Positions 1 to 26,095 are shown, counted from the first letter of the stretch. The stretch is 28,255 nt of DNA from a virus (IMGVR_UViG_2778261277_000006:1-28255), one strand, 5' to 3'. Translations and numbers: made by a program. The notes: generated by a model not told the origin, from the sequence alone.

Positions 1-2569
1 ATTGCTGACATCCGTAATGGACGTCCTGATTTCAGCCAGGTCAGGCGCAAGCTGACCGTTATCAATCTGCGTCCACAGCTCCTGAGCCAGATGGGTTTTC
101 CCTATCTCGCCTTTGAAAAAATCCAGATAACCGGATGCATCATCACTCGGCTGACCGACGGCCTCCACGAATGCCGATTTGCCAACGGTGTTCACACTGC
201 GGATATAAAAGTAATAATCATGGCCCGGTTTGATATTGATACTGGCGGCTATCCAGTACAGCGCCGTACCAAGATAGCGGGCTGCGGTTTCAACCTGCCT
301 GATATCGGTAATCCGCGTTTCCGAGAACCAGAACTCAAACTGTACCGTCGGGTCATAAACGGCAAGATGCGGCGTGGCGGTTATCTGAAAATAGCCCGGC
401 GTCAGCTCAATCCGCGACGGTGCTACCGGTGCGGCAATCCGGAACGATACCGACGCCGGATCGCCCTGCTGTCCCCACGCATTTACCGCCCGGACTGTCA
501 GCGTGTACCGCCCCAGTGCCAGTTGCGTGAAGCGGTATGTGGTTTCTGTCGTCCGGGCCGTGCTGACCAGCCGCTCACTGCCGTCGTCCGCTGTTACGGT
601 CAGACGGAGCAGGAAGCTCACCCCCTTCACCACCTTCGGCGTGTCCCAGCGCGCCAGCACCTGATATTCCCCGCTGTCTGCGGTGACTTCGGCAGTCAGG
701 TGCTGCACCGCTGGCGGCGTGACACCATTCACCGTGCCGCTCTGGTCGCCGTCAAAGTGCGCCCCGTTATCCACGATGGCCTCTTTTGCCGGTACATGCT
801 GCACGGCGGTGATGGCATACGTGCCGTCATCGTTCTCACGGATACTCACACAGCGAAACAGGCGCTGACGCAGCGTCGGCAGCTTCAGCCCCCATACGCT
901 GTATCCGGCAACGCCGTCAGGAACACGGCTCACTTTTACCTTCACGCCGTCGGTGACGGACTGGACCTCCACGCTGACCGGATTGCCACTTCCGTCAACC
1001 AGGCTTATCAGCGTGGTACCGGAGGATGGCAGCGTGATTTCACGGTCGAGCGTCAGCGTCCGGGTCTGGCTGTTTACCGCCAGCACGCGCCCGCCGGTGC
1101 TGATACCGGCATAGTCATCATCGCAGATTTCAATGACATCGCCCGGCACATGGCGAAGCCCTTCTGCGCCCACGCTGAAGTCCACGGTCTGCGTTTCCAG
1201 CAGTTCCGTTTTAATCAGCCACAGCCCGGCGCGGTGCGCCTGCCCACGACTGGTACAGCCAAAGGCATCCATCTTCGTGACGTTACGACCGTAACGGGCA
1301 ATGGCCTGCGTGTCCTCCACAAGCTCTGTCGCCGTCTCCTGGCCGTTGTCAGGGTCAATCCAGTTCACCTCAACGGCATTATGGCGGTCCTTCAGGGCGC
1401 TGAAGCTGTAGCGGAACGGCGCGCCATCACCCGGCATCGCCACATTACTGCGGTTATAGGTCCACACCTTATCCGATGGCCGGTCCTGCACGAACGTCAG
1501 CGTTTGCCCGTTCCATACCGGCATACAGCGCATCGCCGAGCAGAAATCGCTGAGCACATCCCACGCCTTACGTTGTGTGGTCAGCCAGGCATTACAGGTG
1601 ATGCGCGGCTCCGTGCCGCCAAAACCGTCCGGCACTGACTGGTCGCAGTACTGGCCGATGACATACAGCGCCCATTTATCCACATCTGCCGCACCAAGAC
1701 GTTTCCCCATGCCGTAGCGCGGGTGGGTCAGCATATCCCACAGACACCAGGCCGGGTTGTTGCTGTATGCCGGTTTTAACGTTCCGTCCCAGATACCGCT
1801 GTATTGCCGCGTCTGCGGGTTATAGTTCGACGGAACCTGCAGAATACGACCACGAAAATGGTAAGTGCGGTTCACCTGCTGGCTGCCGAACTGCTCAGAA
1901 TCCACCTGCACACCGACCAGTGCCGTGTTCGGGTAGCACTGTTTCACATCGATGATTTCGGTGTATGATGCCCAGATTGTCCTGTTCTGCAACTGGTCTG
2001 TGGTGCTGTCCGGCGTCATCCTGCGCATCCGGATACTGAACGGGCGCGGCGGCAGATTATCCACCACCACCGAGGCCAGATACTGCGAGGTGGTTTTGCC
2101 CTTAATGGTGATGTCTTTTTCCGTCACCCAGCCACCGTTACGCTGTATCTGAACCAGCAGGCGGACTGCCGACGGATTACGGTCCCCCTTTGAGGTGGTT
2201 TCCACCAGTGCCTGCACGCCGAAAGTAAAACGCAGACGATCAATGTTTGCCGACGTGATGGTCCGGGTGATCGGCGTGTCATATTTCACTTCTGTACCGA
2301 GCACCGTCTCGGAGCCTGATGATTCAAATCCCTCCGGCGGTGTCTGCTCCTGCTCACCGGAACGGAACACCACTGTCACTCCGGAAAAATTTGGCTTTCC
2401 ATCACTGTCAGTCACCGGTGTGCCGTTCAGCAGTACGCTTTTTAAGCCATCCACCGGACCTTCAACCGGCCCTTCGCTGATGGCATCGATCACACTCAGC
2501 AACTGCGTGGACTTCAGGTTGTCCCTCGCTTCACGCGGGGTATGTCCCTTACTGCTGCCTTTACCCATT
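1..2569 (-). CDS. J: Tail tip host-specificity protein J, N-terminal ~856 codons; 3' end runs past window start
   Basis: Minus-strand translation from ATG at 2569 reads [34 protein letters not shown]..., matching lambda gpJ; the minus-strand frame at positions 1-100 still reads ...[30 protein letters not shown]..., also gpJ-like. Not in the ORF track because it is open-ended. Sits after I in lambda order. Confidence 0.9.
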
Positions 2570-2628
2570 CCTCACGCTCCAGAAACGACAAAACCGCCCT
2601 GAGGCGGTTTCACATAAAACGTTTTTCA

Positions 2629-3306
2629 TCAACGACCAATCACCACAACCTGACCACCGTCCCCCTCGTCTGCCGTGCTGATCTCCTGAGAAACCACGCG
2701 TGACCCCACGAGCATTTCACCGTACAGAACCGGCAGAACATTGCCCTGGGCAACCATGTTATCCAGTGAGGAAAAATAGGTATTCTGCTTACCGTTATCC
2801 GTTGTCTGCATGCGGGGCGTTTTCGGTTTCGGTGCCAGCATCTGCGCCACACCCCCCAGAATCATACTGGCACCGAGAGAAAACAGGACTGTAGTGGCGC
2901 TCAGTGTTGTTGCACTCAATGCGGCGCCCCACATAGCCAGAGAGGCTCCTGCAGTAAAAAACGAAGCCGCAATGGCGACAGCCCCCAGAACAATCTGGAA
3001 AACACCGCCGTTTTTAGCACCGGCTGTCCGAGGAACCAGGTGTATCACTGCGCCGTCAGGAAGCGGCTCATGCAGACGGGCAGACAGCTCTCTCTCTCCT
3101 GTATCTTTCCCTGCTATCCGCACCTGATACCAGCCGCCGCTCAGTTTCTGGCGAAACGCAGGGAGCTGTGTGGCCAGCGCCCGGATGGCTTCTGCCCCGG
3201 TTTTCACACGAAGGTCGATACGGCGGCCAAATCGTTGCAAATCCCCGTAAAGGCAGATGCGTGCCATGCCCGGTGACGCCAGACGGAGTGTGTGCGTCGC
3301 TGCCAT
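2629..3306 (-). CDS. I: Tail assembly protein I
   Basis: 225 aa, MAATHTLRLASPGMARICLYGDLQRFGRRIDLRVKTGAEAIRALATQLPAF... is near-identical in character to lambda gpI; lies between K and J. Confidence 0.85.
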   Translation of the reverse strand: MAATHTLRLASPGMARICLYGDLQRFGRRIDLRVKTGAEAIRALATQLPAFRQKLSGGWYQVRIAGKDTGERELSARLHEPLPDGAVIHLVPRTAGAKNGGVFQIVLGAVAIAASFFTAGASLAMWGAALSATTLSATTVLFSLGASMILGGVAQMLAPKPKTPRMQTTDNGKQNTYFSSLDNMVAQGNVLPVLYGEMLVGSRVVSQEISTADEGDGGQVVVIGR

Positions 3307-18074: not shown

Positions 18075-18097
18075 GAAACAGTCTCACAATAAATACA

Positions 18098-18212
18098 GGG
18101 TCCGACATGAAAGTGCCCGAAAATGACTTTTACAGGCGTTTTCATGTCGGACCTTTTACGGATTCGATATTAGAAAAAACAAATAGTTATGTTCGAGAAG
18201 TACCGACATGCT
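18098..18212. repeat. Three copies of a CCGACATG-core motif between cosN and Nu1 (candidate cosB terminase-binding R sites)
   Basis: GGTCCGACATGAAA at ~18099-18112, its inverted copy (plus strand TTTCATGTCGGACC) at ~18140-18153, and TACCGACATGC at ~18201-18211; this is where lambda has R1-R3/IHF sites. Confidence 0.5.
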
Positions 18213-18469: not shown

Positions 18470-18709
18470 ATGTCATCAAAAAATAAAACCAGCAGAACAA
18501 CTACCCGTAACATCCGCTTTCCAAACCGAATGATCGAGCAGATACATATTGCTCTTGAAGAAAAAGGATCAGGAAATTTTTCTGCATGGGTCATTGAAGC
18601 CTGTCGCCGAAGACTGTCAACAGAGAAGAGAATAAAGACAGCACAACGGAATACTGAAGAACTAAATACCCGGTCAGGTTACTTTTACCATCGTACTAAT
18701 GGACAATAA
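18470..18709 (+). CDS. Small conserved lambdoid protein, YlcI-like (DUF3950-type)
   Basis: 79 aa, MSSKNKTSRTTTRNIRFPNRMIEQIHIALEEKGSGNFSAWVIEACRRRL...; recalled similarity to the small ORF between bor and cos in lambda/DLP12; opposite strand to the late genes, as in lambda. Confidence 0.6.
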   Translation: MSSKNKTSRTTTRNIRFPNRMIEQIHIALEEKGSGNFSAWVIEACRRRLSTEKRIKTAQRNTEELNTRSGYFYHRTNGQ

Positions 18710-19966: not shown

Positions 19967-20227
19967 ATGGATTACACAAATCTACCAAAACAAACTTTTG
20001 CTGATTTAATCGCACTCAGGCAAGCAGTCGTAGCTCTAATCAACTTGTTGCCAGAGAAGGAAAAGGAATTAGTTAAAGCGCTTCTTAACAGAACTGCCGC
20101 CGATTTTTCATCATATTCACTGACAGATGACCTTGTGGACCTTCCTGAATTAATTGCAGCGTCCGCCATTAAGCTTACTGAAGAGATTTACCCTCCTCAA
20201 AAATCTTCACAAAATTCCTGCGAGTAA
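19967..20227 (+). CDS. Hypothetical small protein (~86 aa), convergent with and overlapping the 3' end of the 183-codon gene
   Basis: ATG at 19967 with AGAGGTG 4-5 nt upstream (track shows GTG at 19961); acidic 86-aa ORF; terminator-like hairpin plus T8 just downstream; no recognised family. Confidence 0.3.
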   Translation: MDYTNLPKQTFADLIALRQAVVALINLLPEKEKELVKALLNRTAADFSSYSLTDDLVDLPELIAASAIKLTEEIYPPQKSSQNSCE

Positions 20228-20726
20228 CTTCAATGCAATAATCGTAAAACGCCGCAAACTGCTCATCGCGGTGTTTTTTTTCATCTTCAGAAGGAATCAG
20301 CACCGACAATTTTTTATTCAGATCAGCGACGCTGCCCTCCAGTTTTTCAATGAGCGATTCAATATCATCTTTTTCTGACCGCAATGCCGTCGGTGGCGTC
20401 TTCAGAGAACCAGTAATTCTTCCCGGTAGTTTTCCTCTGTAGGTTATCCACACATTCTGCGCCTCTAAAATTATGGGGCGCTTTCCCGGCAACGGTTCGT
20501 TCCCTTCACATAACCCGGCAGCAATATCCCGGAACAATATCTTTGCCTGTTTGATTGCCTCTGTCTCGTAAAACTCCAGCGTTGCCCCTTCAACACGCTC
20601 CATGCTGATATTCAGATCAACAATTTCACCGGCAAAACGTTCTTTATCCTGTAAGGCTACAATTACCGAGACTTTATTCTCAAAATTGCGGGTCCCTTTC
20701 ACAATCAACTCATAGCTTTTAATCAT
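20175..20726 (-). CDS. Hypothetical protein, 183 aa, inserted between holin and endolysin
   Basis: ATG 4 nt after the holin stop (...GAG TAA ttca ATG), with GGGGAGAG upstream, so probably translationally coupled to the late lysis operon; lower GC than flanking genes; no recognised motif. Confidence 0.6.
   Translation of the reverse strand: MIKSYELIVKGTRNFENKVSVIVALQDKERFAGEIVDLNISMERVEGATLEFYETEAIKQAKILFRDIAAGLCEGNEPLPGKRPIILEAQNVWITYRGKLPGRITGSLKTPPTALRSEKDDIESLIEKLEGSVADLNKKLSVLIPSEDEKKHRDEQFAAFYDYCIEVTRRNFVKIFEEGKSLQ
20248..20281 (+). terminator. Putative intrinsic terminator for the small plus-strand ORF
   Basis: AAACGCCGC ... GCGGTGTTTTTTTT: short GC stem with a 12-nt loop followed by a run of 8 T. 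Confidence 0.3.
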
Positions 20727-20730
20727 TGAA

Positions 20731-20946
20731 TTACTCTCCCCGCGCCGCCTTGCGACGGTCCTCTTTTATCTTGAAGTACAGATTCGTCAGATAAGTCAGA
20801 AAGCCCAGTGCCAGACTTCCCAGTACACCAATTGCCGCCCACTGTGACGGGCTGACCTGATCAAGCCACTGTAAAAACCAGTAGCCGGCACTGCCTGCAG
20901 AAGTACCATAGGCAATACCCGTTGAAATTTTGTCCATTGGACTCAC
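20731..20946 (-). CDS. S: Class II pinholin, phage 21 S-like
   Basis: 71 codons, (GTG)[70 protein letters not shown], closely matching the S21 pinholin; two TM segments; probable ATG start at codon 4 (~20937) with a possible upstream GTG start. Confidence 0.85.
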
Positions 20947-21003
20947 AACCTCACCTCCGAATCATCCGGTGGCGTTATATTCAGAAAATTGGGGGAATGA
21001 CGC

Positions 21004-21038
21004 AAAAAAACTGCCAGACGATGGCAATCGTCTGACAG
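21004..21038 (-). terminator. Strong intrinsic terminator upstream of S (candidate tR')
   Basis: Minus strand CTGTCAGACGAT-TGCC-ATCGTCTGGCAG (12-bp stem with one G-U, 4-nt loop) followed by TTTTTTT; ends ~60 nt upstream of the holin start. Confidence 0.6.
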
Positions 21039-21105
21039 CAATAACAGGTAATCCAAAAAACATGGGTAAAACAACAAGTGAGTGATTATGGCGACACGGT
21101 GTCGG

Positions 21106-21136
21106 ATTTTTACCGATGAGCCTTTGGCGTGGTCAA
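21106..21136 (-). promoter_or_regulatory. Candidate late promoter (pR'-like) and Q-utilisation region
   Basis: Minus strand TTGACC (plus 21131-21136), 18-nt spacer, TAAAAT (plus ~21106-21111); palindrome CGACACCGTGTCG at the predicted start; about 95 nt upstream of the terminator. A perfect TATAAT inside an inverted repeat at ~21237-21260 is an alternative. Confidence 0.4.
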
Positions 21137-21285
21137 CCGTGGCTCGCTTGCGTCAACGATGAATTAACGAAGCAAATCCTTTGCAACTTATGCACAAACC
21201 ACCACATCAGCCCTGCTACATTGCAGGATGCACCGTGTTGTTACAGATTATACGTAACAGATGTCCCACTAATAATTGAGTTAAT

Positions 21286-22347
21286 TCACAAAATTGTATT
21301 TGCTGATAACATACTGATTTCCTGAATGGTCTTATTGAACCGTTCTGTCTCAAGCTCAACACCTAACGCCCGACGCCCCAGCGCCATTGCTGCTTTTATT
21401 GTGGAACCGGATCCCATAAAGAAATCAGCAACCAGATCGCCAGGTCGACTACTGGCATTGATTATTTGCCTGAGCATATCCGCCGGTTTCTCACACGGAT
21501 GTTTGCCCGGGTAGAACTGAACGGGCTTATGCGTCCAGACATCGGTATAAGGCACGGAGACTGATACGGAGAAATAGCGCCGGAGAGATTTAAACTCATC
21601 CAGCAATTCAGAATATTTGCGATTCAGTGAATCATAAGATGCCACCAGTTGGTGGTGTGGTTGTTCCAGTTGTTGTTCCTGAAACTTCTCTGCCGCTATA
21701 CGGGAAAACAATGCCTGTAACTTCCGGTAGTCAGCCTCATTCGGCAACTGCCACTGACTGGCACCAAACCAGTGGGAAACCATATTTTTCTTACCAGTGG
21801 CTTCGGCAATCTGTTTTGCCGTTATACCCAGTTCGGCACGAGCATCCCTGAAATACGAAATCAGCGGTGCCATTATGTGCTGTTTGAGTTGCCTTTCTTT
21901 TGCCGCATAGCCGTCACTTTTGCCGCAATATGGCCCCTGGTAATGTTCAGCAAACAGAACACGCTCTGTGGCAGGAAAATATGCGCGCAGACTTTCTTTA
22001 TTACACCCATTCCAACGTCCGGACGGCTTCGCCCAGATGATATGGTTAAGCACGTTGAAACGTTCACGCATCATGATCTCAATATCAGATGCCAGGCGAT
22101 GTCCACAGAACAGGTAAAGGCTTCCGGCAGGTTTCAACACCCGCCAGAACTGGGCCAGACAGTGGTCCAGCCACTTAAGGTAATCTTCATCCCCTTTCCA
22201 CTGATTGTCCCAGTCGTTGGGTTTCACTTTGAAGTACGGCGGATCGGTAACAATCAGGTCAATGGAATCATCAGGCAGGGACTGAATAAAATGCAGGCAA
22301 TCAGCGTTGATTAAATCAACACTGTTTATTTTTACAGTATTTTTCAT
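21286..22347 (-). CDS. Orphan DNA methyltransferase, beta-class, probably N6-adenine
   Basis: 353 aa; motif IV DLIVTDPPYF near the N-terminus and AdoMet motif I DLVADFFMGSGSTIKAA near the C-terminus (IV-before-I order is beta class); no restriction endonuclease gene adjacent. Confidence 0.85.
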   Translation of the reverse strand: MKNTVKINSVDLINADCLHFIQSLPDDSIDLIVTDPPYFKVKPNDWDNQWKGDEDYLKWLDHCLAQFWRVLKPAGSLYLFCGHRLASDIEIMMRERFNVLNHIIWAKPSGRWNGCNKESLRAYFPATERVLFAEHYQGPYCGKSDGYAAKERQLKQHIMAPLISYFRDARAELGITAKQIAEATGKKNMVSHWFGASQWQLPNEADYRKLQALFSRIAAEKFQEQQLEQPHHQLVASYDSLNRKYSELLDEFKSLRRYFSVSVSVPYTDVWTHKPVQFYPGKHPCEKPADMLRQIINASSRPGDLVADFFMGSGSTIKAAMALGRRALGVELETERFNKTIQEISMLSANTIL

Positions 22348-22496
22348 GGATCAGTAAGCGTAACTCTGGTAGGCTCACTCTGCTTTTGCGCTAAAGCAAT
22401 GGGCCGTGGTTCGCTTGTGACCAGTAAGCATGAGCGAATGGCTGGCAGGTGCTACCAACACCCTCCAGCCGCCCATTTTCACAAATTAAAAGTCCT

Positions 22497-22715
22497 TCAT
22501 TGCTGAAGACGTCTGTAACAGCCGAACTGGTAATCTGCCAACCCCGCCATCACCAACTGAGTCAGTATTAACTGACAGCGTTCGCGTGAAAGGTATGTGT
22601 TTTGTGCAATCTCCCCAACCGTTGCCGGTTCGACGCTTAATTCATTAAAAACAACTTTCGCCGTTTCTGTCATATCCTGCTGTTTTAGCATGTCTTTTTT
22701 CCTTCGGGTTAACAT
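22497..22715 (-). CDS. Small putative DNA-binding (winged-helix-like) protein upstream of the methyltransferase
   Basis: 64-72 aa (likely start at the second Met, preceded by AAGGAAAAAAG); ...VGEIAQNTYLSRERCQLILTQLVMAGLADYQ... resembles an HTH recognition region; family not identified. Confidence 0.45.
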   Translation of the reverse strand: MLTRRKKDMLKQQDMTETAKVVFNELSVEPATVGEIAQNTYLSRERCQLILTQLVMAGLADYQFGCYRRLQQ

Positions 22716-22813
22716 GACATACCAATAACTCTTGTCTAAAAAGCCAGCAAGATAAAAAGTCAGTATTCACGACCACCAGCGTGTTTACCGTACTGCACCA
22801 AGTTTACAGGTAC

Positions 22814-22837
22814 AAAAAACCCGCTCGATGGCGGGTT
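22814..22837 (-). terminator. Intrinsic terminator, minus strand
   Basis: Minus strand AAACCCGC-CATCGA-GCGGGTTTTTTGT: GC-rich stem followed by TTTTTT; lies between the plus-strand operon and the wHTH/methyltransferase genes. Confidence 0.5.
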
Positions 22838-22883
22838 TAAGCTGTGTGGCGAAGTAACCACTCTTAACATATTACGATAGTTT

Positions 22884-22912
22884 TTGCGTACGCGTTAGCA
22901 TTTTATTACAAT
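22884..22912 (+). promoter_or_regulatory. Candidate sigma70 promoter for the plus-strand two-gene operon
   Basis: TTGCGT (22884-22889), 17-nt spacer, TACAAT (22907-22912), ~35 nt upstream of the ATG at 22945. Confidence 0.4.
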
Positions 22913-22944
22913 TCTATCGTCCTGAACCTAACCTAAGGCCGTTT

Positions 22945-23766
22945 ATGAATTTCTCTTACACTAAACAAGATGGACTGACAAAGAAGTGTCTTGTCAGAGG
23001 CTTTAAAGTTAACACAGCATCTACTGATATTCTTTTTGATCAAATAGCAAACTCTACAACCTTTCAGATAGGCTCTGTCATCAAAATCAGTGCAGATAAG
23101 CACCTTATGCTGAAGGCATTTGAAACAAACGCCAATTGCCACTATCTTCATGTAGCCATTTACAACCCTAAAGCACAAGTTTCTATAACTCCTTTAAAAA
23201 AAGCTGCAAGCGATTTACTGGATGTAGAGAACCTTGATGATCTTCATGCGTTCTTAATGATAAAAGGCAACCAGATAGCATCACTTATGCAAATCTCAAC
23301 TAATTGGTGCGAAGTTAAGATTTCTAAAATATTTAATCAATTTGGTATATCTATAACGCCAACAGCCATTCTAAAAAACAATGTTATTCAGAAAATTAAA
23401 GAGGACAAATTAAAAGCTCTGCATCTCAACATTGACGTTGATGAATCTGATTTCGTTCAAGCACCTAGTGTGTTAGAGTCAATATTCAAAAAAGAACCAA
23501 CAATTAGGTCCAAGGGCATCTCTGGGCACTTAACAATAGATGCTAAAGGTAATGCTGAATTAGCTCAGTCTATTGAGAATAATCCTGCTACATGGGTTGA
23601 TGATTTGGACAGAGATTTTTATATTGAGACGAAAAAAGGCGACAAGTTTTATAGTGACGATTTGAAAGTAACTAAGGTTTACTTTACCGTACCATATGGT
23701 TCTAAGTCTATAAATGCGAAATATGCTAAAGAAATCCTAGAGGATTTTGTAGCAAAAGAGCTATAA
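22945..23766 (+). CDS. Hypothetical soluble protein, 273 aa (first gene of AT-rich two-gene operon)
   Basis: ATG start, long ORF in a strongly AT-rich segment, opposite strand to all flanking phage genes; no Walker, HNH, HEPN or other motif recognised by eye. Confidence 0.7.
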   Translation: MNFSYTKQDGLTKKCLVRGFKVNTASTDILFDQIANSTTFQIGSVIKISADKHLMLKAFETNANCHYLHVAIYNPKAQVSITPLKKAASDLLDVENLDDLHAFLMIKGNQIASLMQISTNWCEVKISKIFNQFGISITPTAILKNNVIQKIKEDKLKALHLNIDVDESDFVQAPSVLESIFKKEPTIRSKGISGHLTIDAKGNAELAQSIENNPATWVDDLDRDFYIETKKGDKFYSDDLKVTKVYFTVPYGSKSINAKYAKEILEDFVAKEL

Positions 23767-23790
23767 TGATAGAAAACAAAGGAGGCTAAG

Positions 23791-24276
23791 ATGCTAAAAA
23801 ATATTAACACAACAGGGCTGATCGTATCAGCACTAAACATCATAGCCTCGTTAGGTTTCTCGATTTTTTTAACTGGAAGCCTAACTAATAATACTGATGC
23901 ATTAAATCTTGTAGCTAATGTATTCTCAATATTATCTGGATTTTTGCTTTTAGTAATAACTATGTCAGGTGAAAACTCAACGTTGCTTAGTAACATGAGC
24001 GCACTGGACGCAGCAAATCAAGAAAAAAGATTCTTGATGCGCTTTAACAAATACTATGCTCTTTTTTTACTTTACATACTCACATTGGCTTTGATTTTTA
24101 TATTCTATTTAATAACAAAAGATAAAACCAATAACTCAGCGATATTAACGAGCTTAAAATCTATAATTGGCCATTCAATTGCATTTCTAACATGCTTCTC
24201 ATTCATCCAGTCAACATTCATTCCACTTAAAATAAAAGAGCTATTTAAGGAAAAAAGAGAACTTAATAAGAAGTAA
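23791..24276 (+). CDS. Hypothetical integral membrane protein, 161 aa, four predicted TM helices
   Basis: AAGGAGG 6 nt upstream of ATG, 24 nt after the upstream stop; four hydrophobic segments (approx. residues 8-29, 38-58, 88-108, 124-144); Lys-rich C-terminus. Confidence 0.7.
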   Translation: MLKNINTTGLIVSALNIIASLGFSIFLTGSLTNNTDALNLVANVFSILSGFLLLVITMSGENSTLLSNMSALDAANQEKRFLMRFNKYYALFLLYILTLALIFIFYLITKDKTNNSAILTSLKSIIGHSIAFLTCFSFIQSTFIPLKIKELFKEKRELNKK

Positions 24277-24299
24277 ACTAAACCATTAGTTTACTTCTT
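24268..24299. terminator. Perfect 14-bp hairpin at the 3' end of the plus-strand operon (candidate bidirectional terminator)
   Basis: AAGAAGTAAACTAA-ACCA-TTAGTTTACTTCTT; includes the operon stop codon; T-rich sequence follows on both strands; lies between convergent Q and the operon. Confidence 0.5.
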
Positions 24300-24324
24300 C
24301 CCGAACAGATTTTAGTTTTACATG

Positions 24325-24678
24325 TCACAGCATATGTAGTACGCCGTCGATAAACCCCATTGCTGTCTGTAATTCTTTTCTGATGGTCCCATCAGAACAT
24401 TTTCGTTTCTTAGCTATACTACGTAATGATATACCGATAACAAAATGAGCAATGATCAGCTCATATTCTTCTGGTTTATACTTCCGCAGGCGGGCGACAC
24501 AGCCATCAATCATGATGCCTTCATCATCATCACACTTGAGGCGTGACTTTTTACCATGTGGCAAAAGCCCCTTGAAGCCTGCCGCTATCGACTGCCAGTC
24601 GACACCACTATTTTCTGCTGCAGCCCATGCCCCCCAGCGGTCTAAAACCTCATACATATCACGCCCCATTACTATCAC
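24325..24678 (-). CDS. Q-family late antiterminator-like protein (QuuD/DLP12-type small Q)
   Basis: 117 aa, ...VLDRWGAWAAAENSGVDWQSIAAGFKGL...CDDDEGIMIDGCVARL...KCSDGTIRKELQTAMGFIDGVL; shares the signature blocks recalled for the DLP12 Q-like protein; downstream of rusA as in DLP12-type nin regions. Confidence 0.65.
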   Translation of the reverse strand: MIVMGRDMYEVLDRWGAWAAAENSGVDWQSIAAGFKGLLPHGKKSRLKCDDDEGIMIDGCVARLRKYKPEEYELIIAHFVIGISLRSIAKKRKCSDGTIRKELQTAMGFIDGVLHML

Positions 24679-25036
24679 CTCTGATTTCGCAAATCTTCAC
24701 GCCCAGCCGACCACCAGGAACGAGCTGACCGCACACAATATTAATTTCATCGAACTGCTCGTCGTCTATGAGCAGCCCCGCATGTGTCAGTGCATCCAGT
24801 GGTGCTTTCAGAATATTGTCCAGGTCACGACGGCGCTTATCCGGTGGCTCTGCAATAATCTTTATCGCCAGCCTTCCGGACAGGTTTAATTTCAACCGCT
24901 GCTGGCGAACAATAAGCGCCACATCCCGACGATAACGCTTTCCTGCCTCCTAGATAAAATATGTGCCACCATGGCGTCGCCAGTAGGTGTTCACCGTTGG
25001 TGGGTAAGGCAAAACAAATTCTGTACGTTCAGTCAT
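24659..25036 (-). pseudogene. rusA: rusA Holliday-junction resolvase homologue with in-frame amber (TAG) at codon 29
   Basis: From ATG: MTERTEFVLPYPPTVNTYWRRHGGTYFI-TAG-EAGKRYRRDVALIVRQQRLKLNLSGRLAIKIIAEPPDKRRRDLDNILKAPLDALTHAGLLIDDEQFDEINIVCGQLVPGGRLGVKICEIRGDSNGA; both sides of the TAG align to RusA in one frame. The track reports only the post-stop part (24659-24922, GTG start). Confidence 0.7.
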
Positions 25037-26095
25037 TTATGCTTTCCACTTCAGGACGCCCGAATTTCTCACGTGTATTAAAAAACGAATCAGTAACACC
25101 AACTGGCTACCGTGTTTCGCTTCAAATTCTTTTACCCCGGCATGCAGTTCGTTATGGCATTTACGACACAGCGGAATAACGAACAAATCATCAGCCTTTG
25201 TTCCCATTCCTCCCAGACCATGTCCAATGATGTGATGCGGATCATCTGCCTGATTGCCGCACGTCATGCACTTCTGTGTTTTTACCCAGCGCGTATATAC
25301 AGGCATCTCTTCCCGTTGTGGTTTCTTGCGCTGGAGATACTGAGCCGGAGACTCCGGATCAACAGTGATGCTTACCACCGTCTTTTCCTGTGGCGGGTTA
25401 TGTTGCTGGTGAGAGCAAGACGGCGGCACTATATTTTTTGTGCGCTGTTTCAGTATGCTGGTGGCTGTCTGCTCTCCCGGTACAATGTCGCTCTCCCGGT
25501 ACACAGAGCGGATTTTTTCTACGGGCAATCCCAGTGAACGATGTAATACTGCCTCCGGTAGCGCCTCCGCCACCTGATTGCATACCGCCCACCAGGATAA
25601 TTCAGCCAGAGATAATTCGCGCTCCTGCGCACCGCTTATTGCATGGCGGATGACATCAATCATCCAGGCTGTCAGATTTTGTTGAGCAAGCAGCTCCAGC
25701 GATTCTGATGTCTGGTCACGAAGCTGGTTGTCGCAGTGCCAGCACAACACCATCGCGCCGGTACCGTAACGGTGTATGACGGTTTCACTGTGATGGTAAT
25801 CACCATGAGGCCACTGGCAGGATTTAACATTGCGCAACAGCCAGTCAGACAATGCACCAGTACCACCAGCAGCACGAATCACACGCTCATTGCTGAAAAA
25901 CGGCAGTAATGATTTATCCTCCGCCAGCGGCTGGCGAACGGCGGGAACAACTCCGGACGGCAGACTGCGCATGCTTTTCGGTTCCGGCTCCACCAGCACC
26001 CGGGTATTGTGGAATACCGGCATGGATTCACGGCCCGGCTTAACGATCACCAGCCCGAGTTCCGGTACAAGAACAGGTCGAAGTAATACCCGCAC
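25037..26095 (-). CDS. nin-region protein with C-terminal Cys/His zinc-finger (HNH-like) motif; resembles DUF968-type prophage proteins
   Basis: 352 aa; C-terminus CMTCGNQADDPHHIIGHGLGGMGTKADDLFVIPLCRKCHNELH (CxxC...HH...CxxCHxxxH); lies immediately upstream of rusA. Family name is from memory. Confidence 0.65.
   Translation of the reverse strand: MRVLLRPVLVPELGLVIVKPGRESMPVFHNTRVLVEPEPKSMRSLPSGVVPAVRQPLAEDKSLLPFFSNERVIRAAGGTGALSDWLLRNVKSCQWPHGDYHHSETVIHRYGTGAMVLCWHCDNQLRDQTSESLELLAQQNLTAWMIDVIRHAISGAQERELSLAELSWWAVCNQVAEALPEAVLHRSLGLPVEKIRSVYRESDIVPGEQTATSILKQRTKNIVPPSCSHQQHNPPQEKTVVSITVDPESPAQYLQRKKPQREEMPVYTRWVKTQKCMTCGNQADDPHHIIGHGLGGMGTKADDLFVIPLCRKCHNELHAGVKEFEAKHGSQLVLLIRFLIHVRNSGVLKWKA

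Follow-up and report, generated by a model that had tools for sequence, protein, structure and literature searches.

A probable late promoter of lambdoid prophages, set apart from its Q antiterminator gene by a slot that most likely holds defence genes

The DNA considered here, IMGVR_UViG_2778261277_000006:1-28255 (28,255 nucleotides, referred to throughout as the window), forms the right arm of a lambdoid prophage and carries its genes on the minus strand, and our subject is the relation between its Q antiterminator gene and the late promoter on which Q would act. The genes follow one another in the order DUF968/NinG-like gene (26095-25037, minus strand), rusA, Q, a low-GC stretch with two plus-strand genes, a winged helix-turn-helix (wHTH)-like gene, an N6_N4 methyltransferase, holin, a DUF1327 gene, lysozyme, Rz/Rz1 and terminase; as in related prophages, DUF968 and rusA precede Q. 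The Q gene (24678-24325, minus strand) encodes a protein of 117 amino acids (aa) belonging to the Q21/Q933W family, with a match to PF06530 over residues 6-117 of 117 (E 7.9e-46; 155.3 bits, cut-off 26); its match to the solved Q21 structure 6P18 is weak (phmmer, E 1.2e-3) and limited to residues 12-90. The two plus-strand genes (22945-23766 and 23791-24276) form a cassette in DNA of 34% GC, and the first lysis gene on the minus strand is S, a phage-21-type holin (20946-20731; PF04971, E 1e-35). An earlier note on the window, made from the sequence alone, had recognised a Q-like gene ending at 24325, the plus-strand operon, a terminator between that operon and the wHTH-like gene, the wHTH-like and methyltransferase genes themselves, and a further terminator near 21004-21038. 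All of these are borne out, as is its remark that the textbook adjacency of Q and its promoter is broken, the gap to the promoter core that we propose being 1426 bp.

This core was found by aligning the DNA upstream of the wHTH gene with that of relatives, which share an element of about 95 bp (22915-22812). On the minus strand it carries an invariant 16-mer, TAACGCGTACGCAAAA (22897-22882), conserved across Enterobacterales loci and a putative Q-binding element (QBE). The window holds one exact copy of TAACGCGTACGCAAAA and no second one, a single site with three mismatches being a match at chance level. The block is followed by two overlapping candidates for the late -10 hexamer, TAATAT (22874-22869) and TATCGT (22879-22874), which read TAnnnT in 129/129 and 85/129 loci respectively, and then by TAAGAGT (22866-22860), which resembles a pause element (TAAGCTG in phage 21) and has this exact sequence in 98 of 129 loci. 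A small hairpin separates TAAGAGT from an intrinsic terminator (22838-22814, minus strand) with the stem AAACCCGC/GCGGGUUU and a run of six U, the presumed tR'. The same terminator is annotated as such in phages SfV and Ayreon, which have an unrelated Q and in which similarity to the window begins only at the terminator.

The window leader folds at -19.8 kcal/mol (z -3.2). Leader terminators were scored sequence by sequence, since RNAalifold could not align the differing terminators; nearly all loci have a GC hairpin and a T-run 50-75 nt past TAAGAG. Because at least four different stem sequences are used across the loci, the terminator itself is under selection. In 23 loci, the first four co-oriented open reading frames (ORFs) after the core gave 20 holin-family hits, together with lysozymes, Rz proteins and six methyltransferases. 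Immediately next to Q, by comparison, only 48 bp separate the Q stop from the cassette stop; since this interval is filled by a hairpin, no promoter fits there, and a promoter directly after Q was ruled out.

We therefore regard it as probable, from sequence comparison, that late transcription begins near 22,86x of the minus strand, from a pR', Q site and tR' at 22897-22814, and that the interval between Q and the core is a slot for cargo. The earlier note had allowed that the true late promoter might lie elsewhere; it does seem to lie elsewhere than beside Q, at 22897-22814 rather than at 21136-21004, the pair that had been thought the best promoter-plus-terminator combination upstream of S and for which the comparative evidence is much poorer. 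The alternative proposal, that cargo was inserted between Q and pR', holds to the extent that cargo does intervene, with the difference that it would consist of the 1.4-kb plus-strand operon and not of some 3.3 kb of mixed genes.

Loci for comparison came from a Q-protein search of one genome per species (32 loci) and from viral contigs with an exact 15-base match to the core (120 more). The earlier note had also proposed an alignment with related prophages, and here the separation of Q and core recurs in 129 loci that have both the core and a Q homologue (62-95% identity). The distance from Q stop to core ranges from 605 to 3560 bp in these loci, with a median of 1559 bp, and is never below 605 bp. 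A separated Q is thus the rule for this whole Q subfamily, not an accident of the window prophage. In two E. coli prophages the core comes after an antisense two-gene cassette homologous to that of the window; one of the two shows just 70% DNA identity over the cassette, with the holin following directly. Phage 1720a-02, with a Q 58% identical to that of the window, has its core 8 bp past the Q stop and carries no cargo. One short locus, L007 (2198 bp), carries the core together with a Q 94% identical to the window's and is labelled as an Erysipelotrichaceae metagenome-assembled genome; it is probably a mis-binned enterobacterial prophage fragment.

The block changes with the subtype of Q. It reads ACGCGTACGCA in loci with a 117-aa Q, CGCGGTCCGCA in phage 1720a-02 and in L040/L041, whose 126-aa Qs are 56-58% identical to the window Q and 73% to each other, and TTTACGATCGTA in L004, which has a 127-aa Q. 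The leader from TGTTAAGAGTGG to the terminator is nearly constant across the three subtypes. A block that depends on the subtype, joined to a shared leader, is the pattern expected of a Q-specificity element, and we infer from it that the invariant block is where Q binds.

The same layout is familiar from phage 21. According to its GenBank record and to Yin et al., Q21 is followed by a TTGACA -35, a QBE of two 8-bp repeats that fill the spacer, a -10 and the start; the pause element TAAGCTG lies at +2, and the terminator ends at about +50. The window Q belongs to the same Pfam family, and the core presents candidate counterparts of the phage 21 elements (pR', QBE, sigma-dependent pause element, tR') in the same order and at similar spacing. 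In both, a conserved block between the -35 position and the -10 occupies the QBE position, a TAAG-type element stands beside the predicted start, and a terminator about 50 nt further on is followed by a phage-21-type holin. The two systems differ in that the -35 of phage 21 starts 7 bp after the last base of Q, whereas the window Q lies 1.43 kb off with the antisense cassette between. Moreover, the window block is a 16-mer in which ACGC is repeated 6 bp apart, the core lacks the TTGACA -35, and the two Qs, of 117 and 162 aa, show marginal sequence similarity (E 1e-3).

Several observations weigh against a late promoter at the core. In neither -10 register is there a recognisable -35 hexamer on the late strand, nor is there one at spacings of 16-18, and the two overlapping -10 candidates are not distinguishable. 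The invariant block, unlike that of phage 21, does not consist of two 8-bp subsites in direct repeat. Nor are the 129 loci independent, many being near-identical prophages. A further 24 viral contigs have the core and no Q in the available, mostly short, upstream DNA; in ten of them, where up to about 4 kb precedes the core, a search with four other Q types gave nothing either. At least one of these contigs, L093, also breaks the antisense rule, with three large sense-oriented ORFs upstream of the core. Finally, the block could be conserved partly or wholly for a promoter of the antisense cassette. As to the upstream DNA itself, in the three of the ten contigs examined further (2.7-4 kb upstream) all of it is low-GC cargo; in L093 (1-3836) and L108 (1-4051) this holds for the whole 4 kb or so before the core, with no Q found.

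The cassette promoter in question, read from the sequence, would lie on the plus strand at 22884-22912, with a -35 TTGCGT (22884-22889), a 17-nt spacer and a -10 TACAAT (22907-22912). Cassette gene A follows with a Shine-Dalgarno sequence AAGG (22935-22938) and an ATG at 22945. The cassette promoter appears to take its -35 from the invariant block of the flank: a TAnnnT stands exactly 17 bp from TTGCGT in 80/129 loci and in 23/36 cassette types, where the background is 0.022 per position (binomial P 1.6e-29, with cassette types treated as independent), and the DNA that bears this TAnnnT is cassette-specific. One could then suppose that 22897-22860 is nothing other than the promoter and operator of the antisense cassettes, the late genes being transcribed from elsewhere, for instance by read-through of the early rightward operon. 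The exact 17-bp spacing to a cassette-borne TAnnnT and a late-strand promoter without a -35 speak for such an arrangement, which we nevertheless consider unlikely: phage 1720a-02 retains the core although it has no antisense cassette, conservation runs some 25 bp past the antisense -35 into TGTTAAGAGTGG, a late-strand terminator always follows the core, and the late-strand TAnnnT is present at every one of the 129 loci.

The site favoured by the earlier note as late promoter consists of TTGACC (21136-21131) and, 18 nt on, TAAAAAT (21112-21106), which offers TAAAAA at spacing 18 or AAAAAT at spacing 19; the -10 had been misread as TAAAAT, and the consensus scan does not list the pair. Both hexamers fall inside a structured region (21273-21051, minus strand) similar to the small RNAs (sRNAs) STnc100 and PasD, which matches the Rfam STnc100 model (RF02076) at 24.5 bits, below the gathering score of 47. 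They align to hairpin regions of that model, whose consensus does not have these hexamers there. RNAalifold, run on three sequence types of the region, gives 66 pairs, nine of them with compensatory changes. The 3' end of the region, upstream of S, is the second intrinsic terminator (21039-21003, minus strand), with a 13-bp stem, six GC pairs and T7, and compensatory changes preserve its stem in L041 and L004. Bona fide STnc100 copies occupy the same relative place, on the late strand between Q and holin, in L002, L004, L005 and L041, and in a 2026 preprint STnc100 and PasD are presented as related sRNAs that prophages carry between Q and holin. Irrespective of Q subtype, relatives share the 340 bp from methyltransferase to S, at 99.7% in L040 and about 83% in L041 and L004; searched against the phage collection, the region upstream of S gave no match beyond the holin.

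On this evidence, the most fitting reading of the pair at 21136-21003 is an sRNA-like element within the late operon that has a terminator of its own, and the STnc100-like RNA is inherited with the methyltransferase module, not with Q. To keep TTGACC/TAAAAAT as pR' and 21039-21003 as its terminator would make the whole 3.3 kb from Q inserted cargo, as the earlier note had it with its 3.3 kb of mixed-orientation cargo before this site. In favour of such a promoter, the hexamers and about 50 nt around them are nearly invariant in the window, L040, L041 and L004 while the flanks differ by some 17%, and a strong terminator lies about 95 nt downstream with S immediately after. We nonetheless find it quite improbable. 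The segment flanks the methyltransferase module on its 3' side, remains unchanged with 117-, 126- and 127-aa Qs instead of co-varying with Q, and is missing from loci without that module, where the holin comes directly after a core of the 22.9-kb type; the hexamers lie in hairpins of a structured RNA with compensatory changes, resembling an STnc100 whose consensus lacks them; and the -10, TAAAAA at spacing 18, escapes the scan. The site is probably not pR'; it lies in a structured RNA and, though it may hold a promoter, shows no tie to Q.

Two further observations concern this region. A hairpin at about 21238-21262 (minus strand), just past the methyltransferase stop, has a conserved loop, GTATAAT; in L041 the pairing of the stem is maintained by a different sequence. 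A transposon-derived guide RNA was also considered, one relative of the STnc100-like region lying near an IS200/IS605 tnpA fragment, and was dropped, as there is no TnpB and the surroundings are insertion-sequence debris.

The preferred placement of pR' at 22897-22814 also changes the standing of the genes between the core and the STnc100-like RNA. The first gene past the presumed tR' encodes the small wHTH-like protein (22715-22497, minus strand; 72 aa), a homologue of SfV orf47 with weak DprA_WH and TrmB matches below cut-offs. The next encodes an adenine DNA methyltransferase of the M.EcoGII family (22347-21286, minus strand; PF01555, E 3e-42; PADLOC MTase_II, E 5e-151). The link to M.EcoGII runs via the enzyme of phage 1720a-02, which is very similar to M.EcoGII (PMC5778455) and 81% identical to that of the window, with DPPY and FMGSG in the alignment (beta-class order DPPY ... 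FxGxG). M.EcoGII is reported to be non-specific, toxic when expressed and silent in lysogens (PMC5778455), and this silence fits a gene placed behind a Q-controlled terminator.

By megablast, the block 22909-21329, comprising terminator, wHTH gene and methyltransferase, lies directly after Q in SfV (orf47/orf48), cdtI, mEp460, Ayreon, phiP27 and Stx2 phages. SfV, phiP27 and 1720a-02 have the wHTH gene, the methyltransferase and an STnc100-like RNA between tR' and S on the late strand, as does the window. Lying past the terminator, the two genes are part of the late operon, where they form a known post-Q module and not, as the earlier note had supposed, intervening cargo. Its suggestion of a regulatory role for the wHTH protein likewise finds no support, the same gene pair being found with unrelated Q types (SfV). 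That this protein should be what actually governs the late genes, or that Q should require it as a cofactor, is very hard to credit. Its gene is the first after the terminator and the protein has those weak winged-helix matches; against this, the gene is always paired with the methyltransferase, is found beside Qs of unrelated families, the 250-aa one of SfV among them, and is missing from most loci of the window's Q subfamily, in which the methyltransferase is found in 6/23.

The interval between Q and the core has a composition of its own. Its median GC over the 129 loci is 0.345, compared with about 0.5 upstream, and 257 of its 265 ORFs of at least 70 aa (97%) are antisense to Q. The encoded proteins make up 58 clusters, and the cassettes about 36 types. 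PADLOC recognised Kiwa (KwaA and KwaB, 9 loci), PD-Lambda-5 A and B, PDC-M53 A and B, PDC-S42, a PDC-S33-like protein, a cytosine methylase with NsnA/PD-T4-2-like proteins, and OLD/AriA/NsnB-like ATPases; it gave no match for a type encoding proteins of 185 and 315 aa, for one encoding 395 and 351 aa, or for the window's own type. The first two, found at L013 7367-8840 and L018 7342-9736, are the commonest PADLOC-negative cassettes, with 16 loci each, and are candidates for uncharacterised defence systems. Occupancy varies within the 126-aa Q subtype, 1720a-02 being free of cargo and L040/L041 carrying one antisense gene. Together, the composition and contents indicate that the Q-core interval is most likely a dedicated slot for defence genes, always occupied in the 117-aa Q subfamily. 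In L004 (E. coli TK3046), which has the 127-aa Q, the interval at 2158-3050 shows isrK and C4 antisense-RNA matches above gathering scores and an ORF6N gene, all in sense orientation, so that the same slot has an occupant of another kind there.

In the literature searched we found no description of a slot or hotspot between Q and pR'. The hotspots of P2-like prophages and P4-like satellites (Rousset et al. 2022, PMC9122126; Vassallo et al. 2022, PMC9519451) share with it conserved phage flanks and variable low-GC cargo of 1-4 genes, in which known and unknown defence systems are mixed. The slot described here differs from them in belonging to lambdoid phages, in lying between a regulator gene and what would be that regulator's own DNA target, and in cargo that is almost always antisense, with a -35 seemingly borrowed from the flank. 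Stx and related phages carry other cargo between Q and S (stx, tRNAs, the M.EcoGII-type methylase, STnc100/Pas sRNAs), which is downstream of pR' and co-oriented, whereas the Q-core slot is upstream of pR' and its cargo antisense.

The cassette of the window consists of gene A (22945-23766, plus strand), encoding a 273-aa cytoplasmic protein with a RexA-like fold, and gene B (23791-24276, plus strand), encoding a 161-aa membrane protein that is RexB-like by architecture only. Protein B has three strong hydrophobic segments and a weaker one, compared with four in the 144-aa lambda RexB. Searches of large databases placed protein A in a narrow family whose members, almost all of them from Enterobacterales, are called 'hypothetical', and protein B among 137 homologous clusters, all named 'hypothetical'. 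Neither protein has a Pfam family above cut-off or a PADLOC hit, neither shows sequence or profile similarity to lambda RexA or RexB (hhalign probability 0.15 and 0.23), and Foldseek against viral models returned only uncharacterised proteins and weak RdgC hits. The cassette is nonetheless RexAB-like in architecture: as in lambda rexA-rexB, a soluble protein of about 275 aa with a RexA/RdgC-like fold is followed by a small polytopic membrane protein, the gene order is the same, and the pair likewise resides in a lambdoid prophage. The difference is one of place, lambda rexA-rexB lying beside cI in the immunity region, where it shares a transcript with the repressor, and the window cassette between Q and pR'. 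Between the convergent Q and cassette genes is a perfect 14-bp hairpin that resembles a bidirectional terminator (24268-24299). It folds at -15.4 kcal/mol on the plus and -18.1 kcal/mol on the minus strand (z -4.5 and -4.1), and no shuffle equalled it.

Elsewhere in the window, rusA (25036-24659, minus strand) has an in-frame stop at 24952-24950, which leaves an 87-aa ORF covering RusA profile positions 36-110 of 124; it is probably a pseudogene. A 183-aa DUF1327/YdfR-family gene (20726-20175, minus strand) lies between holin and endolysin, and is found at the same place in related E. coli prophages. Between the lysis genes and the small terminase gene, a long near-perfect hairpin (18095-18159, plus strand) surfaced only as a spurious microRNA-family match. 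Downstream of Rz there is a 79-aa ORF (18470-18709, plus strand), where L040 has an opposite-strand gene annotated as YlcI/YnfO family. Relative to shuffled sequence, the region 20000-25200 is enriched in terminator-like sites (16 found, 4.7 +/- 2.0 expected); promoter-like sites in the same region, from the consensus scan, are not above chance (7 found, 10.6 +/- 3.5 expected).

With the late promoter placed at the core, Q produced from 24678-24325 would act in trans on a site 1.43 kb away. Polymerase modified by Q would then read through the terminator at 22838-22814 and go on to transcribe the wHTH gene, the M.EcoGII-type methyltransferase, the STnc100-like RNA with the second terminator, the holin and the remaining late genes. 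In the opposite direction, transcription of the cassette would be ended by the hairpin abutting the Q stop codon. With the -35 of the cargo inside the flank block, two divergent promoters and the presumed Q site overlap, and the cassette promoter would also face early transcripts running through Q. We put forward as a tentative idea, less likely than not, that the slot is a regulated socket, in which the accumulation of Q turns on the late genes and simultaneously shuts off the prophage's own abortive-infection cassette.

For annotation, this placement would shift the late promoter by 1.8 kb and make the methyltransferase a Q-controlled late gene, the promoter proposed in the earlier note becoming part of an sRNA-like element. 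It also opens a new search space, namely a fixed, always-filled cargo position in widespread lambdoid prophages of Enterobacterales, both borders of which, the Q gene and the 16-mer, can be recognised by sequence. Several of the common cassettes match no known defence system, so that the slot may lend itself to the kind of mining already applied to the P2 and P4 hotspots. There are old reports that lambda Q prefers to act in cis. If our reading is true, the Qs of an entire subfamily act at 0.6-3.5 kb from the genes encoding them, which bears on that preference, and any cassette entering the slot would gain an automatic off-switch during the prophage's own lytic growth. The overlap of cargo promoter and presumed Q site would thereby offer a mechanism, open to test, by which a prophage could silence its defences on going lytic.

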